Positions 40,267-62,643 of a stretch of DNA of 64,000 nt are shown piece after piece. This DNA is from Chiloscyllium plagiosum. Its lineage: Eukaryota. Each line of letters starts with the position of its first letter. Position 1 is the first letter of the stretch. The notes under the pieces were generated by a model that was not told the DNA's origin, did not search any database, and saw only the letters and a list, made by a program, of their open reading frames with translations. The translations under genes and the position numbers were made by a program. The stretch is taken from the NCBI RefSeq assembly GCF_004010195.1, contig NC_057726.1, positions 34,155,171 to 34,219,170 on the forward strand, read 5' to 3'.

Positions 40267-40358
40267 TGAGTAATTTGGCTCTGGTGAAGCCTGAGAAAGC
40301 CAAATCGGTGGAGAATTACCTTATACAGATGGCAAGGTTTGGGCAGCTTGGTGGAAAA
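40267..40358 (+). CDS. PDCD5: PDCD5 exon 4 ([30 protein letters not shown])
   Basis: ttccag|TG AGT...GGA AAA|gtaagg; 92 nt. Confidence 0.95.
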
Positions 40359-40898
40359 GTAAGGCAATATCACTTCTGCGCTTCTCTCTATTAAAATTGA
40401 GTTTTCATCATTTTTGTCTTATAAAAAAAATTAACATGCAGCTATAGGAAGCAATTAAGAATGCATGTAGTACGATACAAAGGGATTGTTTTACAACAGT
40501 TATTAGTGAGAAATGTAATGCTGTGTATATTTTCAGTCTTCTTACCCAAGGATGGATGGACCTACATCAGGGAAGTACAGTAAAGTTTGTTCGATTCCTT
40601 TGATGAGGTGATTGTTCTTTAAGGAGAGGTTGAGCAATGAAAGTTTTTATTCCCTAGAATTCAGGTGAATGAGAGGTTGAAACTGACAAAATTATTAAGG
40701 ACTTGGCAGGGTGGATGCTGGGCTGTCTAGAAAGGGGTCATAGATAAGCTCGCTTAGGAGTTTGATGAGAATCCTTTTTTTTTAACTGTGTAGAGTTATG
40801 CACTGCAATTCTCAGTGCCTGATGCATTGAGTTAATTGATCTAATTAGCTTTTGAGTACTGAGTATTGTGACGGTAATGTGGGAAGGCGGAGTTGATT

Positions 40899-49829: not shown

Positions 49830-49951
49830 TTTATTTTTGAATAATTTGTTTATATGAATAGTAACATTGCACATTTATAAAATTAAATAAGGCACACATT
49901 GTTATAGAAAGTCCTAGAAAAATACAGACACCAACAGAAACAAACTTTATT
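49830..49951 (-). terminator. Candidate ANKRD27 polyadenylation signals
   Basis: Minus-strand AATAAA at 49946-49951 and 49830-49835, about 430-550 nt after the stop. Confidence 0.45.
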
Positions 49952-50378
49952 TGTGCTCAATAGGAATTGGCAGGAGTTTAAAAAAATACATTTTTGATGT
50001 TTTAATGTTAAAATTACTGCCAATAATCAAGAGTGATTTTTTTAAATATATACACACAAAAATACAGATGCATGTCTAATGGAATACTACACAGTAGCTC
50101 ATGGACAAAGCTCCATTTCCCTATATATGTGCAAAGTAAAATATTGCTACTGCAATACATTTATCCATAGAGTTAAGTGCTTTCTCCTTTGTGACTGCAC
50201 AGTGGAAGTGAACTTCATACTTAGTGACAATTTTTATCCAAGGTTTCAGTTTTAGTAGATCAGTTTTCCAGCCGAAGTAGGTAGTGAGCATTGCAGTCCT
50301 TTCATGTGTGCGTACATTATGTGGGGTACCTACCTGGAGGCATTTATATTAGCAGCTCCTTTATGAACAGTTTTTGGT

Positions 50379-50702
50379 TCATAATTCACCAATATCTTTG
50401 TGGTTGCCTACTTTTGCAACATTAACTGTCTCAAAATCTGGTGAATCTTGTGAATGATTACAAAGTTCTCCACACATTCCCACAAATTCGGTGTTTCCAT
50501 TTACATCATTCAATTTACTGGGTAAAGATTTAATAAAACCTGTATCTCTCTTGTTTTGATAATTAGTCTCTGTATGGTTTGCTGCAATTAGCTTTTCTTT
50601 CTCAGTTTCAAGGTCAATGGCATAATTAAGAAACAATGCTGCACTGTGATCCTTTGTTTCAGTTTGCTTCAATTTTCTTTTGTCAAAAGTCTTGATTGCC
50701 AA
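50379..50702 (-). CDS. ANKRD27: ANKRD27 last coding exon (begins LAIKTFDKRKLKQTETKDHS)
   Basis: tctgacag|TTG GCA ATC; phase 0 matches the preceding exon; 107-codon open frame to TGA. Confidence 0.75.
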   Translation of the reverse strand: MAIKTFDKRKLKQTETKDHSAALFLNYAIDLETEKEKLIAANHTETNYQNKRDTGFIKSLPSKLNDVNGNTEFVGMCGELCNHSQDSPDFETVNVAKVGNHKDIGEL

Positions 50703-51869
50703 CTGTCAGATCAAATTATAAAAACAATGTATATAAATTAGACTACTGACTTGTTAGTAATAAAAAAAGCTTTTCAAATATTCTTAAAAACTGTTCAGTT
50801 TATTTGAAAAAGTGTCAAATCCAAATTAACAAGGCTTCACCTAGATCATGTTGGAAGCAGAGTCCTGGTGGATTGCATGGACTAGGGCTGTACATCGGGC
50901 TAGAAACTAAATAGGCAGGGCTTCAGTTGCATGGAGAATTATGGAAAAAGTTAAAAAGGGACAGGTAGCACTCTAAATAGGTTATTGAAGTTTCCAGACC
51001 AAGTAACAAGATAGAGTATGGAAAAGGTCAGGAATTTAACTTCAGGCATAGCAGATAAAAGGACAACTATGACAAGGGTGTAGTCAATGCAGGACTGAGT
51101 GTTGTGTTTAAATGCATGAAGTATATAAAATAAGGAAAATGAGCATGTAGGAGAGATTGAAATTGGCAGGTACAAAGTTGTGGTCATCGTGGACATATTT
51201 GCAAGGGGTCAGGGTTGCCTTGTTAGTAAGAATTGAAATTAAATTGATAGCAAGTAGTAACAGAGTTTGAAAGCGTAGAATCCGTGAGGGTAGAGTTGAA
51301 GAAAGGAAAACAAAATACCCTAATGGGAGTTATGTATAGGCCTCCTAGCAGTAGTCAGAATGTGGGCAGAAAATAAATCATGGGGAACTTCAATATGTTG
51401 GGAGTGGATCTCAAGCAAAGGAATCAAGGAATATGTATTTTTTTTTTGCGAACAGTTTATGGTACAGCCAACTAGGAAACAGGCAATTCTGAATTTGGTA
51501 ATTTGTAATGAGGCAGATTTGATTGGGGAGCTTAAGGTGAAGGAACATCTAGTGACCATAACATGACAGAATTTACCCTGTAGTTTAAGAGAGAAAAGCT
51601 GAAATCAGATGTAACAGTATTACAAGGGAAAGAAGTTTAATCCAGATAAATATGAGGTGCTGCATTTTGCGAGATCAAATGTTAAGGAAAAGCAGACAAT
51701 TAACAGCAGGATCCTGAACAGCATTGGTGTCCATCAGGATCTTGGAGTGCAAGTCCATAGCTTCCTGAAAGTGGCTTGCTTGCCTTTATTGCATGCCATT
51801 ATTTGCAGCAGATGGTATCATGATTTTCTTATAATTATCTAGTAAAGTTAATCCAGTTAGATTTCATAC

Positions 51870-51942
51870 CTGATGGATTAGGAGTTCATCAAATTCAGGG
51901 CTGCTTTTATCTCTTGTAACAGTCTTCTTTAAATTCTCAGAT
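51870..51942 (-). CDS. ANKRD27: ANKRD27 penultimate exon (RSENLKKTVTRDKSSPEFDELLIHQ)
   Basis: ctttgtctgtag|A TCT GAG...CAT CAG|gtatga; 73 nt, phase 2-0 fits both neighbours. Confidence 0.8.
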
Positions 51943-52779
51943 CTACAGACAAAGGTTTAACCAAAATGCTTTCAATGTCTTCAAGGGTCACATTCAGAGC
52001 AAGGTGCAGTTTTTTTTTTATCCCATCTAATTTGATTTGTTTCTATGGAAATACCAATTCTTCTGTTATCCTCTTACTTCATGAGTAAAAACATACATTG
52101 CCATAATTTTTTTTCCTTTTCCCATTTTTGGATTTTACTCTAGATAATTTTGTGAGGTCCATTATCTGAAACCACTCACATAAGCACATCCTTGCACCTA
52201 AACCTGTGATATATTCTTTCCTTTGTGAATATCTAACTAATCTGTAGTGAGGCCAGGGATCAAACTGAAATTCGCCTGAAAGCAGAAGCCAACTGTGAGA
52301 GAAACAAGTGAACAGACATTTTAGAAAGGGGTGGCTGACAGTGAAGCAAAATGCATACTTGTAACTGGATTACTTAATTAAAGCAAGATAAACAGAAAAA
52401 TTCTCAAACATTCAAGACATATTTGAATTCCCATCTTTTTAAAAAAATGTTCAAATTGCTGGTTCAAAATTTGGCATGTAACATTTGGACGTAACATTTG
52501 GTAAGAAAACAGAGTTAACACTGAGTCTTTTGACTCTTCAATCAGAGCACATGATGCTGCCAGACCTGCTGAGTTTCAACACCAAGTTCAGTTTTTGTTT
52601 CAGATTTCCAGCTTCTGCAGTTCTTGGTTTTACTTTATGCTGAATTTGGTGCTAAGTTATGAACAATTGCATATATTTTAAAAGATTTATAAAAATAATG
52701 CAGCTTGTTATTAATTAACACAGCTTCCTAATAACTTTTTAAGTTCATTACAATTTTTAAAATAAATGATATAGACACC

Positions 52780-53135
52780 TAGAGATGTACAGCACAGAAA
52801 TAGACCCTTCGGTCCAACTCATCCATGCCAACCAGATATCCCAACCCCAATCTTGTCCCACCTGCCAGCACCTGGCCCACATCCCTCCAAACCCTTCCTA
52901 TCATATACCCATCCAGATGCCTTTTAAATGTTGCAATTGTACCAGCCACCACATCCTCTGGCAGCTCATTCCATACATGTACTACCCTCTGCATGAAAAA
53001 GTTGCCCCTTAGGTCTCTTTTATATCTTTCTCCTCTCACCCTAAACCTATGCCCTCTAGTTCTGGACTCCCCAACCCAGGGAAAAGATTTTGTCTATTTA
53101 TCCTATCCATGCCCCTCAATTTTGTAAACCTCTAT
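52780..53135 (-). mobile_element. CR1 LINE 3' end fragment
   Basis: RGNFFMQRVVHVWNELP...FKRHLD and CR1 3' UTR. Confidence 0.85.
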
Positions 53136-53143
53136 AAGGGATA

Positions 53144-53347
53144 AGAGAGGAGAAAGTGAGGACTGCAGATGCTGGAGATCAGAGCTGAAAAATGTGTTGC
53201 TGGAAAAGCGCAGCAGGTCAGGGAGCATCCAAGGAGCAGGAGAATCGATGTTTCAGGCATAAGGGCTTATGCCCGAAGCGTCGATTCTCCTGCTTCTTGG
53301 ATGCTGCCTGACCTGCTGTGCTTTTCCAGCAACACATTTTTCACCTG
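53144..53347. mobile_element. Fold-back Penelope-derived short element, same family as 48368-48593, opposite orientation
   Basis: Arms tgaaaaatgtgttgctggaaaagc / gcttttccagcaacacatttttca; flanking taagggata at 53135-53143 and 53348-53356. Confidence 0.82.
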
Positions 53348-53670
53348 TAAGGGATATGTGAGCAAGTTAATCAGGAACGAGCTATGTAAAAGGCAGCTGT
53401 CTGGTTTGGACTATAATCCAGTTCAAGGAACAGCAGTTACAACTTCATCCTCACTTGTTTCAAAATTCCATCCTAGATAATTTTATATAATGGAATCATA
53501 CGCTGCACTGTAAGCTTGACCACTTACAACACACCCAGAAAACCTTCTTGGCAAAAGTTTATACACATCAAAAGTAGCCCAAATTAATTAAGCTAACATT
53601 GATTGATAGTAGTAACTAATTTGTACCTTTACTGAATCTACATTCTTTTCCACATTAGAGTTGTACTTAC

Positions 53671-53761
53671 CTGTTAAATTTCTGAATGGATTGCACAAGC
53701 TGGATCCTTTTTTTATCAATGATTTCATTAACTTCATCTGGCTTCGTAACAAATGCATCAG
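53671..53761 (-). CDS. ANKRD27: ANKRD27 exon (SDAFVTKPDEVNEIIDKKRIQLVQSIQKFNR)
   Basis: ctttccttttcag|CT GAT...AAC AG|gtaagt; 91 nt, phase 1-2. Confidence 0.82.
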
Positions 53762-54131: not shown

Positions 54132-54246
54132 ATTTCTTTCTGACATCAGCTGACTTTATCTTCCGGGCAGCAGTTAGTCTGAATACTCCATCTTCTTCGG
54201 TTACCTGAGCAGATGCTGTTTCCAGAATTTTCAGAATCTCTACATT
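54132..54246 (-). CDS. ANKRD27: ANKRD27 exon (NVEILKILETASAQ...DVRKK)
   Basis: ttttacctgtccag|AAT GTA...AAG AAA T|gtaaga; 115 nt; resembles remembered human NSKIMELLQ...VKIRKK. Confidence 0.82.
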
Positions 54247-54766: not shown

Positions 54767-57700
54767 CTGGGAAAGGCTTCAGGAGTAAACCACAAGGAAA
54801 AATCCAAAGCAGGGGGCCCCAAAGATAGATCGTTGTTATCTACAACCTTGTTCTGACAGCTCCTGCGATGGCACTGGTACCAAACTGTAACGGCTCTGCT
54901 GTTCCTTTAGATTAGCCAGTGTTGTGGAGAGGGAGAACATGCTTCATGGGCAACAGCTTGTCCCTATACCACACCACCTAGGCTTGCATCCTACCACCAC
55001 TGTACCTGGAGAGGACACTCCACCCGCTTCACCTACGGCATCGACACAACACGAGGGGGCAGCAGATACTGGTTTTGTGTCATCGCAAGATTGGCGTAGA
55101 ACACAATGCCAGGGGTATCAACCGTAGGAGGAATTTTCGGATCCCACTGGACAGCTATCACCCGCCTCAACCCACTATCCTTATTGGGTGAATGGGGATT
55201 AGGAATTGTCCTGACAGCAGATTGTAATCATTGCACCAAACAATAAAAGAACAACAACAAAAAAAGAAGACCAGCTCTAAAACTGAGCAGATGGAATGTC
55301 TGGACAATGATGACCGGCCTCTCAGAAACCCTCCAGGACATCAGCGACTCTAGGAAATCAGCTGTCATAAATAACGAGCTCAAGAGACTCACCATCGGTA
55401 TAGCCGCTCTCCAGGAAACAAGGCTGACAGAGGTGGGTTCACTGAAAGAGAAGGACTACATGTTTTACTGGCTGGGGAAGGACTCAGAGCACGGGGTCGG
55501 CTTTGCAGTGATGAACACAGGACAACCAGGCAGCAATGGCTCACAACAACTCATGACTCTTCGCCTCAGTCACCTTGTCAGCGTGTATAATCCAACACTG
55601 TCCTCCACACCAGACACATAGGACAAGTTCTACAACAATCTCGCTGCCCTCATTAGCAGCTTCCCTAGGGAAGAATAACTTGTCCTTCTGGGTGACTTCA
55701 ACACCAGAGTGGGTGCAGACCACAACTTGTGGCCCTCCTGCCTTGGGCATTTTGGTGTGGGCAAAGTGAATGAGAACAGACAGCGACTGCTTAAGCTGTG
55801 CACTTACCATGATTTGTGCATCACTAACTCCAACTTCCAGACAAAGCCTCAGCACAAGAATTCCTGGAGACACACCAACTCGATCTGATTCTAGTTAGGC
55901 GCATCGCCAAACATGTTCTCCACACTCACTCTTACCCACAGTGCTGACTGTCATATAGACCACTCCTTGGTGTTTTGCAAGATTAAGCTGCAACCTAAGA
56001 GATTCCATCACACTTAGCAACAGGCGAACCCTCGCACCAATCTCAGCAAGATGTCCCAGCCAGATTTTATGCAGCAGTTCTCGGAGACTTGAGAGAGAGA
56101 ACTCAGTGCCTCGTGACACAGAGACTCTGCCACAGAGAAGACAGAAACCTTTCAAGATACCATGTACCGCACATCCCTGGCCATCTTTGGGAAGAAGAAC
56201 TCCAAGAGACACGACTGGTTTGAGGCAAAAGCAATCGAGATGACCCCCATACAAGCGGTCAGCTAACAGGAAGAACCTGCAGATTCTCAGAGCTGCCAGA
56301 AACAAGGTTCAGCAGACTGCCAGGTGTTGTGCTAATGAGTACTGGACACAGCTAAGTGAGGGAATTCAGACGGCCGCTATAATGGGGAACATTAGGGGAA
56401 TGTACAGAGGCATCAAGGAGGCACTAGGACCAGCGCAGAATAAGACAGCCCCCCCCCCCCCACATCGCCCTCAATTCCTCGACTGGGGAAGTAATCACAC
56501 ACAAAGGCCAGCATATGGAGAGGTGGGTTGAACACTACCCTGATCTCCACTCCAGAGAGTATACAGCGTCTGCTTCAGTACTTGATGCCATCATGTGCTT
56601 GCCAACCATGGACGAGCTAGATGCAGAGCCATCAGTAGAAGAGCTCAGCAAGGCCACTGACAGCCTGGTCTCAGGGAAGGCCCTGGGTAGTGACGGATTT
56701 CTCCTGATCTGATCAAGTGCTGCAAGACTAGCTTCCTGCTCCCATTACATAAAGTCCTCTGTCAGTGCTAGCAAGAAGGAGCTGCACTGCAGGCCATGCG
56801 GGACGCCAAGATCATTGCCCTCTTCAAGAACAAGGGCAAGAGAAGCGACTGCAACACCTATAGAGGCATCTCTCTCCTCAACACTGTCGGCAAAGCATTT
56901 GCTTGGATCATCTGACTCGCCTGCAGAAATTGGCAGAACGTGTATACCCAGAGTCACAGTGCGGCTTCTGAGCTAAAAAGGTCAAGAGTAGACATGATCT
57001 TCTCCCTTTGCCAACTGCAGGAAAAATGTGCAGAGAACAGAAAATGCCCCTACATGCTACTTTCATTGACTTTACCAAGGCGTTCAGCCTGGTCAGCAGA
57101 AACAGCCTTTTCAAGGTTCTCCTGAAGACCAGCTGCCCACCAAAACTGCTCAGTATGATAGACTTCTTCCACAGTAACACGAGGGGGACAATGTGGTTCA
57201 ATAGCAGCTCTTATGAGCCCTCAACGTCAGCAGTGGCATCAAACAAGGCTGCGTCCTCGCTCCCACACCGAGATTTTTTCTGTTGTACTCCTGAACCATG
57301 CCTTTGGCACCCCAACGGAGGGGATTTACTTACGCACTAGAACAGACAGCAGGCTCTTCAACCTGGTCCGCCTCACAGCCAAGACTAAAGTAAGCATGGC
57401 ACTCATCAGGGACATGCTGTTTGCCAATGATGCCACAGTTGCAACACACACACAGCAGGAACTCCAGTTACTGATAGACTGCCTCTCTTACACTTGCAAG
57501 GTTATCAGACTGACTCAGTCTGAAGATGAGCGTCCTGGGACACCGCCGGTCATCACCATCGACGACTACAAACTCTGTGTCGTCCATCAGTTTACATACC
57601 TTAGCTCTACCATCAGTGACAACCTCTCCTTGGACACAGAGATTGACAAGAGGATCAGGAAAGCAGCCTCAGCTCTTGCTCACCTCTCGATTAGAGTATG

Positions 57701-58359
57701 GACAAATCCCAAGCTGACACTGAAGAAAAAGATGTCAGGCTACAATGCCTGCATCATAAGCACACGGTTGTAAGGCAGTGAAACATGGACTACATATGCC
57801 AGACAGAAGAGAAGACTGAACACCTTCCACTTAAAGAGTATCTGCCATATCCTGGCAAGACAGTGTCCAATGCAGTGGTCCTATCTTGTGCTGGCTTTCC
57901 CAGCATTTACACTCTGCCCAGACAGCAGTGACTGCGCTGGCTAGGCCACTTCCACTGCATGGAGGATGGCCGCATCCCAAAGGATAACCTTCATGGAGAG
58001 CCTGCTTCTGGGAAGAAACCCACAGGGCACCCCCAGCTGCACTACAAGGACGTCTGCATGAGGAACATGAAAGTGCTTGATACCGTTACGGAGTCCTGGC
58101 AATGGCTTGCAACTGACTGCACAAGATGAAAAAACACCCCGAACCAAAACAGGGGAAAAGAAGCTGATGAGCGCTGCAGCAGACAAGTAGTACAGCAGCT
58201 CGAGCAGATCAACCATTACATAGAGATTAGCCCTCTGCAACCGGGACTGTCACTCCAGCATTGGCCTCTTCAGTCAAAAGTGACACTGCGTCAGGGAAGT
58301 AGAAAGCCAGAACAACGGGATGCAACCCATGGTCAGCCATGACGAAAAGGGGCCTCACA
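54767..58359 (+). mobile_element. Full-length degenerate RTE-clade LINE, antisense in an ANKRD27 intron
   Basis: WNVWTM...IAALQETRL, LLGDFN (endonuclease); FIDFTKAF, KQGCVLAP, DMLFANDA (RT); TSD taacatagca at 54757-54766 and 58360-58369. Confidence 0.9.
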
Positions 58360-58519
58360 TAACATAGCAAAGCATTCCATGTGCTCACAGTTTAATATCA
58401 AGCCAAATAAATATTTATTCAGAGGGGTGACAGAAAGTCAGATTAAAAAAGATAGTTCTGGGGAATCTTCATTCTGATGATTCAACACTATAGTGCTTCC
58501 AAGGCCAATACACATCATT

Positions 58520-59240
58520 CCTAAGATTTAGTATCCAAGAGCACTCCAGATGGAATGTGAGGCAATGAACATCTCCAAGAGAAAATCTAACAATCTCTCC
58601 TTGACATGCAATTGCATTAACATCACTGAATCCCCCACAACCAACAAGCTAGAGGTTACCAGCTGGACCTGCCACTTAAACACTCGCCAGTGGATACAGG
58701 AGCAGGTCAAAAGGCTGGGAATACTGCGGTGAGTAACGCACCTCCTGACTCCCCAAAGCCTGTCGGCCATCTACATGGCACAGCTCACACAGCAGTCAGG
58801 AGCGTGATGGAATACTCCCGAATAGATGAGTTGGATGAATACAGTGCCTAACATTCAAAAACGTTAATACCATCCAGGCCAAAGCAGCCCACATGATTGG
58901 TACCACATCCACAAACATTCAATCCCTCCACACCAATGCAAAGTAGCAGTGAGTGTACAAACTACAAGTGTGTACCAAAACCCATAGCCATTACCATTCA
59001 GAAGGAACTACACCAACTGCAAGTTCAATTCCAAATTCATCATCTTTACTAGGGATGATAGCACTGTTCCTTTGGTGACATTGGGTCAAAATCCAGGAAT
59101 TTCCACCCTAATGGCATTGTGGGTTAGCTTACAGCAAATGGACCGCAACAGTTCAAAGCAGCAGCCACCTTCTCCAGGGCAACTGGGAATGGGCAACAAA
59201 GCTGCTCCAGCCAGCGACAGCCACAACCCAATGAAAAATG
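58520..59240 (+). mobile_element. Degenerate CR1/L2-group LINE 3' portion
   Basis: RSVMEYSR-like frame and gcaacagttcaaag...ctccagggcaactgggaatgggcaacaaa 3' end; related pieces at ~2400-2700 and ~14650-14990. Confidence 0.55.
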
Positions 59241-61220
59241 ACGCAGCACATTCTTAGGTGTTAGATCCCCGCAGAATGTCAATGATTATGTCTCCCTTTA
59301 ACCACCCCTCCACCCTCCCCTTAAGGGAGAATTATAAACACCTCTATTACATATTCAAACTTTGGAAACTAGCATGTAAACCTGATAGATTGAGCGATCA
59401 AACTGATGAAAAATTACAAAAACAGGTTGCCAATTGCCTAGAGACAGTATCTATGTTACAATCACAACCAAGCAATTGCAGGAAAATAAAAAAGCTACAA
59501 ATCTTAGGTTAGCAGTACATTGGCAATAAATAATTCAAAACGAGCCTACACTTCAGTAAAGTGCAACATTTCTGGTATAGCCTGTGAAATATTTTTTAAA
59601 CTATCAAACACTATAAAATGAAAGAAAAATCAATTAGCCGATTTACCAACTGCTGATAGCATCGTATAATACCACTGTGTAACAGAAAAACATCCCTGCA
59701 GTGCAATATTCATATTTAATAATTCAACAACTGAAGTATAAGATTCAAATTAAATTTGGAAAAAACAGATGTGCAATAAAGAATACACAGACATCCTCAA
59801 ATAGCACAAAGACTATATTGCAGCAAATCTCATTTGTGGAAGTAATAAGTTACCATTTATAAACTACAAAGATCACTTATTAATTCTCATGAAATTATTC
59901 CATTTATATAGTACAGAGCTTATACACTTTCCACAGTAAAACAGATATTCTAGTCAAAGCTAACTGTTCATTTCTTTTCTACTTTTGTGAATGTTGAATC
60001 CCAAAACAGTGCCGCTCCACAAAAAGTTTGTTTGATTTTGGAAATGAATATAAAGCAAGCTGTAGCTTAAAGCTAGAAAACTATGGCTAACCAATTTCTC
60101 TTGTGTGTATTTTAGCCAGTAAATTTCTTGGGCAGGTTTTCAACATGAAAGCAATGCAATGTCCAATATCCAAGTTCAAGAGGGAGAATTAGAAAAATAC
60201 CATTGCAATTTCCGAAAGGAAATCCAGAATTGAACCAGAGGCCAACAAATGGTACACCTGGGTGTGACAAATAATGTTGTACTCGAAGGCCGCCCAAAGT
60301 GAAAAAAAGCTCATGAAATGAAATTAATCGTCAGGCATAACAGATTTTTTTCCCCAAACTTTTATTCCCAACAAATATTACTTCAACAGTCAACAGATGA
60401 TTCTCATCTGACTCCTTTACACTAAGCTCAGATTGTTTTCCATGTACTTCTTCCAGTTGTCAATGATAAGTCATATCATTAAACAACACAAAATGTTCAT
60501 CAATTAGAGAAGCAGGGTTGCTTGGAACAGAAGAGTAAATCTAGATGCTGAAGATGTGAACTTAAGGCCCTACTGGTAACAGAATGTAAATACAACACAC
60601 AAATATAATTATTCTGAAGGAGAATCGAAACTAACTCTCCACAGATGCAGCCAGAGTTGTTGAGTTTCTCCAGCTTTGTGTTTGTGCTTAATTACAGCAT
60701 AACAATTTACACTAGCAGTCTCAATAATTAACATGGGCATTAGAATTTATAATGAGACATTATCCATAAGTGAGACAAAAATGTGATAATGGGAAGGAAA
60801 GTTTCATGGGCAGATACTAAATACAGATGCAGTTAAAAAAAAACCTGGATGAGAAAACAAAATTAGGTTCAGAATTTAACTAGTCCTTCTCCGTAGTTTC
60901 AGCAACTTGCCATTCTCTTTTCTTTTTAAAGTTGGACTAACATGTGAAAAAGCTTTTTGATTGGCTGGAATGCAATGGTCCCACTATAAACAGCTTTGTG
61001 ATTGCTCAGAAATCATTTCCCACAAGCAGATTAAATGGCAACTGTCTAAAGGAAATTGGTTATACACTTGAAAAGCTATTTAGAAAGAGGAGAGAAGAGA
61101 AAATAATGGATTGCTCGTTATAAAACCTGGCAGAGAACAGATGCTAACATGGCCTTTTTGTGCAGGATTTTATGATTCCTAAGTGAAATGACAGTTACAA
61201 GCTTTTACCTTCCCACAGAC

Positions 61221-61382
61221 CTCCTCAGCACAATCAACTGGAGTGCACTGCTGCTTATTTCGTAAATTGACCGATGCTCCGTTGCACAAAAGTAGATTCA
61301 CCAGCGCTCCATGTTTTCCCTTTACAGCCTCATGCAGAGCAGTATTTCCTTGGTTGTTGGCAAGATTAACATTGGCACCATG
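61221..61382 (-). CDS. ANKRD27: ANKRD27 ankyrin-repeat exon
   Basis: ctctccag|CAT GGT GCC; HGANVNLANNQGNTALHEAVKGKHGALVNLLLCNGASVNLRNKQQCTPVDCAEE; 162 nt (alternative donor gives end at 61209). Confidence 0.92.
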
Positions 61383-61554: not shown

Positions 61555-61851
61555 GAATCCCTATAGTGTGGAAGCAGGCCATTCAGCCCATCAAATCCAC
61601 ACTGGCCCAAGAAAAGCATGCCACCCAGACCTTCCTCCCTACCCCATCCCTGTAATCCTGCATTTCCCATGGCTAATCCACCTAGTCTGCACATCCCTGG
61701 ACAGTGGGAGGAATCCAGAGCACCTGAAGGAAATCCATACAGACACTGGAAGAAGGCGACCGTTTAGAGTTTGCACTTGAGGGTAGAATCGAACCTGGGT
61801 CCCTGGGACTGTGAGGCAGCAGTGCTAACCACTGAGCCATCGTGTTGCCCA
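61555..61851 (-). mobile_element. HE1-type SINE
   Basis: gtgaggcagcagtgctaaccactgagcc head on minus; shared body. Confidence 0.8.
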
Positions 61852-62523: not shown

Positions 62524-62643
62524 CTCCAGCAACAACTCAGCAATTTCCAGATGTCCTTGAAGGCAGGCATGGAGCAATGATGTATTACCATATACATCTT
62601 TCTTATTTAATTTTGCATTATAATTCAGCAAGTATTGAACTAT
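62524..62643 (-). CDS. ANKRD27: ANKRD27 ankyrin-repeat exon
   Basis: ttaaacag|ATA GTT...CTG GAG|gtaaga; IVQYLLNYNAKLNKKDVYGNTSLLHACLQGHLEIAELLLE; 120 nt. Confidence 0.92.

Follow-up and report, generated by a model that had tools for sequence, protein, structure and literature searches.

Tandem WH2/beta-thymosin-like units encoded by three spliced exons in the tail of shark ANKRD27 (VARP)

Two tandem WH2/beta-thymosin-like units were confirmed to be encoded by three spliced exons in the disordered tail of ANKRD27 (VARP) from the shark Chiloscyllium plagiosum. The DNA analysed, hereafter the window, is a stretch of 64,000 nucleotides (assembly GCF_004010195.1, contig NC_057726.1, positions 34,155,171 to 34,219,170 of the forward strand), in which only the 3' exons of ANKRD27 are present, on the minus strand. 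Judged from the sequence comparisons described below, the pair likely binds actin monomers and would link VARP, when bound to retromer, with actin on endosomal tubules, a reading to which we assign a probability of about 0.6.

As the original prediction had claimed, the three exons (53761-53671, 51942-51870 and 50702-50379) have canonical and phase-compatible GT-AG sites: AG precedes all three, GT follows the first two, and a single open frame results once they are joined. The predicted joints 53671/51942 and 51870/50702 were indeed used, since both of them and the upstream joint 54132/53761 were present in contigs of six of the eight sequencing runs (X1, X4, X5, X7, X15 and X18); these six runs represent six studies and three coded organisms, none being recorded as RNA, and there was no control run recorded as DNA. 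The shorter side of both tail joints measured 73 letters in X1, X4 and X18, 75 and 27 letters in X7, and only 27-28 letters in X5 and X15. No joint was observed in the raw single-cell runs X21 and X22, in both of which the coverage was too thin, no X22 sequence being placed at all. An origin of the joints from a processed gene copy was also considered and is unsupported, as the last exon of ANKRD27 gave one single match in the whole genome. The joints also leave out, to the letter, stretches that have CT..AC ends, and together with the single match this makes splicing the straightforward reading.

The window exons belong to ANKRD27/VARP. The only proteins retrieved in a search with the last exon were six annotated shark ANKRD27 proteins, and all six share the spliced tail. 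When six window exons were joined, 261 of 297 residues (88%) were identical to whale-shark ANKRD27, which holds a VPS9 domain, two cysteine-rich zinc fingernails and two ankyrin stacks.

Unit 1 is composed of a hydrophobic helix, a linker of 8 residues in which a phenylalanine is conserved, the LKKT core, and an extension aligning without gaps to WIP and MIM. The helix is amphipathic, with a conserved leucine and isoleucine and a hydrophobic moment of 0.30, and it is a helix in the AlphaFold model as well. The features of a long WH2, according to passages of a review (PMC7407642), are a hydrophobic helix, LKKT, the basic R54 and the S55 of WIP. In the alignment, unit 1 keeps a basic residue and a serine at the R54/S55 positions. 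The linker of unit 2 shows thymosin spacing, and its isoleucine, phenylalanine, aspartate and leucine were invariant in 17 of 17 sequences. The spacing of the two units (31-32 residues) is constant from shark to Capsaspora, and five positions are invariant over the same range, all of which are WH2/thymosin core sites.

A second, C-terminal helix of the beta-thymosin type was not seen after unit 2 in the AlphaFold model, and the Pfam Thymosin match stops at position 22-25 of 39. Because this helix is missing, the pair is a WH2-type module with thymosin features and not a beta-thymosin. Judging from the model, the helix at residues 964-969 could serve as a thymosin-type second helix for unit 1. 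The tail carrying the pair is predicted to be disordered when free, as residues 890-1076 of the whale-shark AlphaFold model have a predicted local distance difference test (pLDDT) value below 50, with helices at 928-942 and 964-969, in a model that is weak overall (mean pLDDT 58.7) and poor in some folded parts too.

The likeness to known WH2 and thymosin modules was then assessed by profile searches. Pfam WH2 matched at unit 1 and Pfam Thymosin at unit 2 in all six shark proteins, below the curated cut-off (E-values of 0.003 and 0.004 in the whale shark). At E-values up to 1, WH2 was matched in 6 and Thymosin in 16 of 37 further vertebrate proteins, and each of them in 3 of 21 distant proteins. 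When the pair was excised, WH2 matched 12/17 and Thymosin 14/17 orthologues (E-values up to 1), any other family matching at most one; the excised sawshark pair reached 27.3 and 25.5 bits, compared with cut-offs of 23.1 (WH2) and 24.8 (Thymosin), and these excised-segment scores are inflated by the short target and by the summing of two units. A search of PDB with one sequence gave six weak matches, five being WH2/thymosin peptides or chimeras (E-values of only 0.36-0.65), and a 17-sequence profile gave ten, nine being of the same kind (E-values 4e-6 to 0.22), in a set that already holds known WH2 peptides. The original prediction had likened the first motif to WIP and the second to thymosin, and both likenesses held in these searches.

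Shark sequences were searched in the same way. The unit profiles were run against 13,134 shark open segments, among which the WH2/thymosin loci had been put by targeted fetching, and shark WH2 and thymosin exons ranked on top after the window itself. With three control profiles, no WH2 motif was found in the same segments. The ESM Atlas yielded no usable hit for the shark or the Lingula segment, which speaks neither for nor against the likeness. A profile-profile match of the pair with nine shark WH2/thymosin exons reached a probability of 96% and an E-value of 2.5e-9. Chance likeness was ruled out by the segment ranking, the PDB profile matches, the excised-pair Pfam matches and a decoy comparison given below.

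For the vertebrates, 120 proteins were listed among 742 found, and the 89 with a full tail were counted, these being 90% clusters and not species; 31 of the 120 were left out for having fewer than 190 residues past the last ankyrin anchor (incomplete models or alternative isoforms, including those of coelacanth and bowfin). On profiles built from some of the scored proteins themselves, both units were high-scoring in 12/12 named cartilaginous-fish, 3/3 amphibian, 14/14 squamate, 7/7 turtle, 1/1 crocodilian, 25/26 bird and 3/3 unnamed full-tail proteins, and in 0/15 teleost, 0/4 monotreme and 0/2 marsupial ones. Sturgeon and paddlefish kept unit 2 with a damaged unit 1. The mammals, represented here by hamster, marsupials and monotremes, retained unit 1 only as a trace and lacked unit 2. 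Going by these scores, the pair is eroded in mammals and teleosts. Conservation in other cartilaginous fishes and erosion in mammals had both been anticipated, and both were found, none of the six monotreme and marsupial proteins carrying the two units.

A profile made from eight invertebrate-type sequences and Capsaspora, all nine chosen via the vertebrate profile, gave 48-66 bits in cartilaginous fishes, 47-55 in amphibians and mostly 50-60 in birds, and only 1-9 bits in mammals and -5 to 8 in teleosts. Among 44 vertebrate proteins picked for intact tails, column identity was 0.78 in unit 1 and 0.69 in unit 2, compared with 0.43 and 0.44 in the flanks, and the core leucine was present in 98% (LKKT, unit 1) and 93% (LKQT, unit 2). 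A basic-x-x-serine-x-proline element was found in 70 of the 89 full-tail proteins, compared with 65 of 89 for the full core pattern, and it outlasts the lost LKKT core in monotremes and marsupials. The 14-3-3-type consensus likewise consists of a basic residue, two residues, serine, one residue and proline.

Beyond the vertebrates, 150 representatives at 50% identity were listed, of which 76 near full length were kept and 74 were dropped as partial or without a fingernail match. In 19 of the 34 long-tailed distant representatives the match beat the best of 836 decoys, and all 19 matches lay in the tail; Lingula, Patella, Argopecten, Babylonia, Pinctada, Elysia, amphioxus, Acanthaster, Acropora and Capsaspora are among those known by name. 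Both units were identified in Lingula, Patella, an oyster cluster, Argopecten, Babylonia, Pinctada, Elysia and Capsaspora, and one unit in amphioxus, Acanthaster, Tubulanus and Acropora, it being unit 1 alone in the first three of these; matches in Hydra, Mylnosiga and hamster were weak. Lamprey, hagfish, Phallusia (a tunicate), Macrostomum (a flatworm), Trichoplax and the sawfly Orussus gave no match, which gene-model gaps may explain in some of them. The simplest history would be that the pair was present in the holozoan ancestor and was then lost several times. The module had been proposed as possibly ancestral, and the occurrence of both units in Capsaspora takes it further back than was claimed.

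Other conserved elements were observed around the pair. In invertebrates and Capsaspora, a conserved helix-like element stands just before unit 1 (P0129:976-995, P0179:1679-1698 and 12 other distant orthologues), and its profile had no match in seven vertebrate proteins tested. Its assignment as a decayed ankyrin repeat was dropped, as the profile matched no ankyrin repeat in 11 proteins. The tails of seven distant orthologues (P0175, P0178, P0189, P0208, P0209, P0211 and P0212, one of them from the choanoflagellate Mylnosiga) have in common an aromatic-rich conserved segment of about 100 residues, which sits past the last ankyrin and ahead of a WH2-like unit that is weak or partial. Downstream of the pair, a basic RRH[TS] motif occurs in 49 of the 89 full vertebrate tails and in hamster, and in no cartilaginous fish; we take it to resemble a kinase site by its consensus.

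Several observations weigh against an actin-binding role of the pair, in addition to the limits given above with the excised-segment scores, the PDB matches and the segment ranking. None of the 64 full-length proteins exceeded the Pfam gathering cut-off (the best reached 17.8, compared with the WH2 cut-off of 23.1), hence none would be annotated, and neither WH2 nor Thymosin was present in the precomputed Pfam lists of the 120 listed vertebrate proteins. In the Pfam scan proposed with the original prediction, both families were matched at the units, but never over the cut-off in a full-length protein. In the whole-genome Thymosin scan the last exon ranked 6th of 7 with an E-value of 8.4, which is not significant alone, and the intron-split unit 1 was missing from the 19 matches of the whole-genome WH2 scan. 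From the helix isoleucine to the leucine, the unit 1 linker counts 8 residues, which is more than in WIP/MIM (5) and in thymosin (7). In the helix before unit 2, the pair of leucines that is typical of WH2 is missing; this helix has a hydrophobic moment of 0.12 compared with 0.30 in unit 1, and it is out of the usual WH2 register. In tetrapods, the residues past the unit 2 leucine are variable. It should be further pointed out that no match was found in 15/34 long-tailed and 42/42 short-tailed distant representatives, which means that many lineages can do without the module. The cell data cited below are all mammalian, that is, from a lineage with an eroded module.

We nevertheless consider it probable, going by the sequence, that at least one unit binds G-actin, and unit 1 is likely the stronger binder. 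By analogy with WH2 structures, each unit would fold on binding actin and place its helix in the cleft that separates actin subdomains 1 and 3. Actin D24/D25 would be contacted by the L-[KR]-[KR]-T of each unit, and in unit 1 the extension would run along actin subdomain 1 as in WIP. The flexible tail would keep monomers or pass them on, or capture the barbed ends of filaments, and it would do so at tubules because the zinc fingernails hold VARP on retromer. Passages of a study in human cells describe VARP as recruited by VPS29 and as sitting with retromer on tubules that largely exclude WASH (PMC4059916), and passages of another, in mammalian cells, describe cargoes that are affected by VARP loss and unaffected by WASH loss (PMC4231307). 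In mammals, the serine-proline element persists beyond the core and may act as a phosphorylation switch, comparable with the switch in a WH2 that is described for yeast Las17 in PMC8102491. According to passages of PMC4506460, sequestration of monomers, feeding of barbed ends, capping, tracking and nucleation are all within the reach of WH2-type modules, and which of these results cannot be read from the motif alone. As the two units are closely spaced and the thymosin end helix is missing, we lean towards monomer binding and tethering as the job of the pair, and nucleation on clustering comes second.

A nucleating pair, in which the two units of each chain, multiplied on retromer arches, would align monomers into a filament seed, is unlikely. 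Tandem WH2 arrays nucleate in Spire, Cordon-bleu and JMY, and a spacing that stays at 31-32 residues all the way from shark to Capsaspora would suit such a role. However, known WH2 nucleators have three or four units or are dimers, and VARP has two units only; the helix between them is short and possibly shared, and unit 1 occurs alone in amphioxus, Acanthaster and Tubulanus. Nucleation would be helped by the two retromer-binding fingernails, which let VARP be arrayed on coats according to parts of PMC4059916, PMC12311110 and PMC7539009.

Slightly less probable still is that the WH2-derived units bind a partner other than conventional G-actin, for example an actin-related protein, or fold back on the ankyrin or VPS9 domains of VARP as a brake. 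The unusual linker length and helix register would fit this explanation, and so would the further conserved helix just upstream in invertebrates and Capsaspora, but the invariant residues are the actin-binding core of thymosin and WIP, and in the monomer model, which is weak (mean pLDDT 58.7), the tail was not seen to pack confidently against the body. Lastly, it is very improbable that the WH2 likeness is incidental and the island was kept as a phosphorylation or 14-3-3-type site, for the survival of the basic/serine/proline element without the LKKT core in monotremes and marsupials (70/89 compared with 65/89 vertebrate full tails) leaves the helix, the phenylalanine linker, the leucine-basic core, the whole second unit and nine of the ten PDB profile matches unexplained, and the element fits better as a switch inside a WH2, as described for yeast Las17 (PMC8102491). 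Actin-monomer binding by the VARP tail remains the preferred explanation.

The original prediction knew of no described WH2 in VARP, and we likewise found no WH2, thymosin or direct actin binding of VARP/ANKRD27 in the literature searched, with most subscription papers, InterPro, PROSITE and SMART lying outside it; an automatic WH2 call on some ANKRD27 orthologue is possible. Direct actin binding was absent from the matched passages of 10.1101/2024.07.11.603126, PMC3279394, PMC4059916, PMC4231307, PMC12311110 and PMC7539009. In the last of these, the published evolution of VARP back to Capsaspora covers VPS9, fingernails and ankyrins, with WH2 nowhere in the main text, and its supplementary alignments could bear on the WH2 question. 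A deeply conserved pair sits in a well-studied retromer accessory protein, yet it is eroded in the mammals where VARP was studied.

If true, a conserved actin-binding module would provide the retromer coat with a second direct actin link beside WASH, and the repeated erosion in mammals and teleosts would offer a natural comparison for the role of this link and its replacement. In humans the module probably has no function, and WH2-type motifs are of a known kind. A broader proposal, which we hold tentatively and at somewhat less than even odds, is that VARP already regulated actin directly, on the retromer coat, in the holozoan ancestor, with a tandem WH2/thymosin hybrid that predated animals, persists intact in many invertebrates and in sharks, amphibians, reptiles and birds, and was lost separately in mammals, teleosts and probably insects. 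On WASH-free tubules, a single protein would in that case combine Rab21 exchange, VAMP7 control and retromer binding with the binding or nucleation of actin, and because of the separate losses the usual model organisms would be the exceptions.

The coordinates of the ANKRD27 features are collected in Table 1. Tail to tail with ANKRD27, a PDCD5-family exon (Pfam PF01984, E-value 9e-5) was observed at 40269-40367 on the plus strand, in agreement with the neighbour of human ANKRD27. High-copy repeats lie within ANKRD27 introns at 52657-53340 and 61555-61840, where every contig run is very deeply covered, and a longer element with reverse-transcriptase-like frames appears at about 54800-58800. Elsewhere in the genome, a divergent thymosin-like frame (L098, G000:C12:16893098-16893193, minus strand) with a methionine start and an acidic residue in the core motif scored 22.7 bits, under the Pfam cut-off. 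Actin gene clusters were seen at G000:C4:2112090-2235084 and C4:35744855-35792927 (L001-L004, L006), with residues 42 to the end on one exon and the first 41 on another, and with at least four near-identical copies within 125 kilobases.

Table 1. ANKRD27 features in the window, in the order of transcription.
Feature	Position	Strand	Basis
ANKRD27 exon, second ankyrin stack	62524..62643	-	joint 61382/62524 in X1 and X4 contigs; acceptor AG in sequence; translation matches shark ANKRD27
ANKRD27 exon, last ankyrin repeats	61209..61382	-	joints in X1 and X4 contigs; AG/GT ends
Exon with end of ankyrin stack and start of disordered tail	54132..54246	-	joint 53761/54132 in six runs; AG/GT ends
Exon with unit 1 amphipathic helix (about 53708-53685) and first half of linker	53671..53761 (91 nucleotides)	-	AG/GT ends; helix at whale-shark residues 928-942, pLDDT <50
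Exon with unit 1 LKKT (51932-51921), WIP-like extension (51917-51897) and helix into unit 2	51870..51942 (73 nucleotides)	-	AG/GT ends; PDB matches WIP 2a41, MIM 2d1k
Last coding exon with unit 2 thymosin-like core (Pfam Thymosin match 50696-50652; LKQT 50672-50661), poorly conserved tail and TGA stop	50379..50702 (324 nucleotides)	-	preceding AG; Pfam match
3' untranslated region	49877..50378	-	reach of spliced X1 and X4 contigs; other runs extend to at least 49800

Compared with the tandem-WH2 nucleators Spire, Cordon-bleu and JMY, which have three or more units or are dimers, VARP shows two units. The shark gene is the same gene as that of mammalian VARP/ANKRD27, a Rab21 guanine nucleotide exchange factor, Rab32/38 effector and binder of VAMP7, VPS29 and SNX27, and the shark relatives share the VPS9 domain, the two zinc fingernails and the two ankyrin stacks with it. 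With the beta-thymosins (Tb4, Tb9) and the ciboulot-type multi-repeats (PF01290), unit 2 and the unit 1 linker share an isoleucine-x-x-phenylalanine-aspartate linker as well as the leucine-basic core, and the tandem arrangement of the VARP pair recurs in ciboulot and other multi-repeat thymosins. Unlike in beta-thymosins, the Pfam match spans only 8-22 of 39, no second helix is present at unit 2, and the host is a 1,000-residue trafficking protein. Unit 1 resembles the long WH2 of WIP (PDB 2a41) and MIM/MTSS1 (PDB 2d1k; Pfam PF02205) in its hydrophobic helix and LKKT, and it carries the extension with an aspartate, a basic residue, a serine and a proline in the same register. It differs from them in its linker (8 residues with a conserved phenylalanine, compared with 5), in a full-length score under the Pfam cut-off, and in that no proline-rich profilin site precedes it in shark. 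The best non-self match of the unit 1 profile (E-value 0.0008), also matched by unit 2, was the WH2 exon of a shark PX-domain gene (L104), whose PX exon lies 49 kilobases upstream on the same strand and which we take to be PXK. This exon contains the same phenylalanine linker and WIP-like extension as unit 1, but only one such unit was found there, and it scores over the Pfam cut-off (37.5 bits). PXK is endosomal, and its WH2 binds G-actin.

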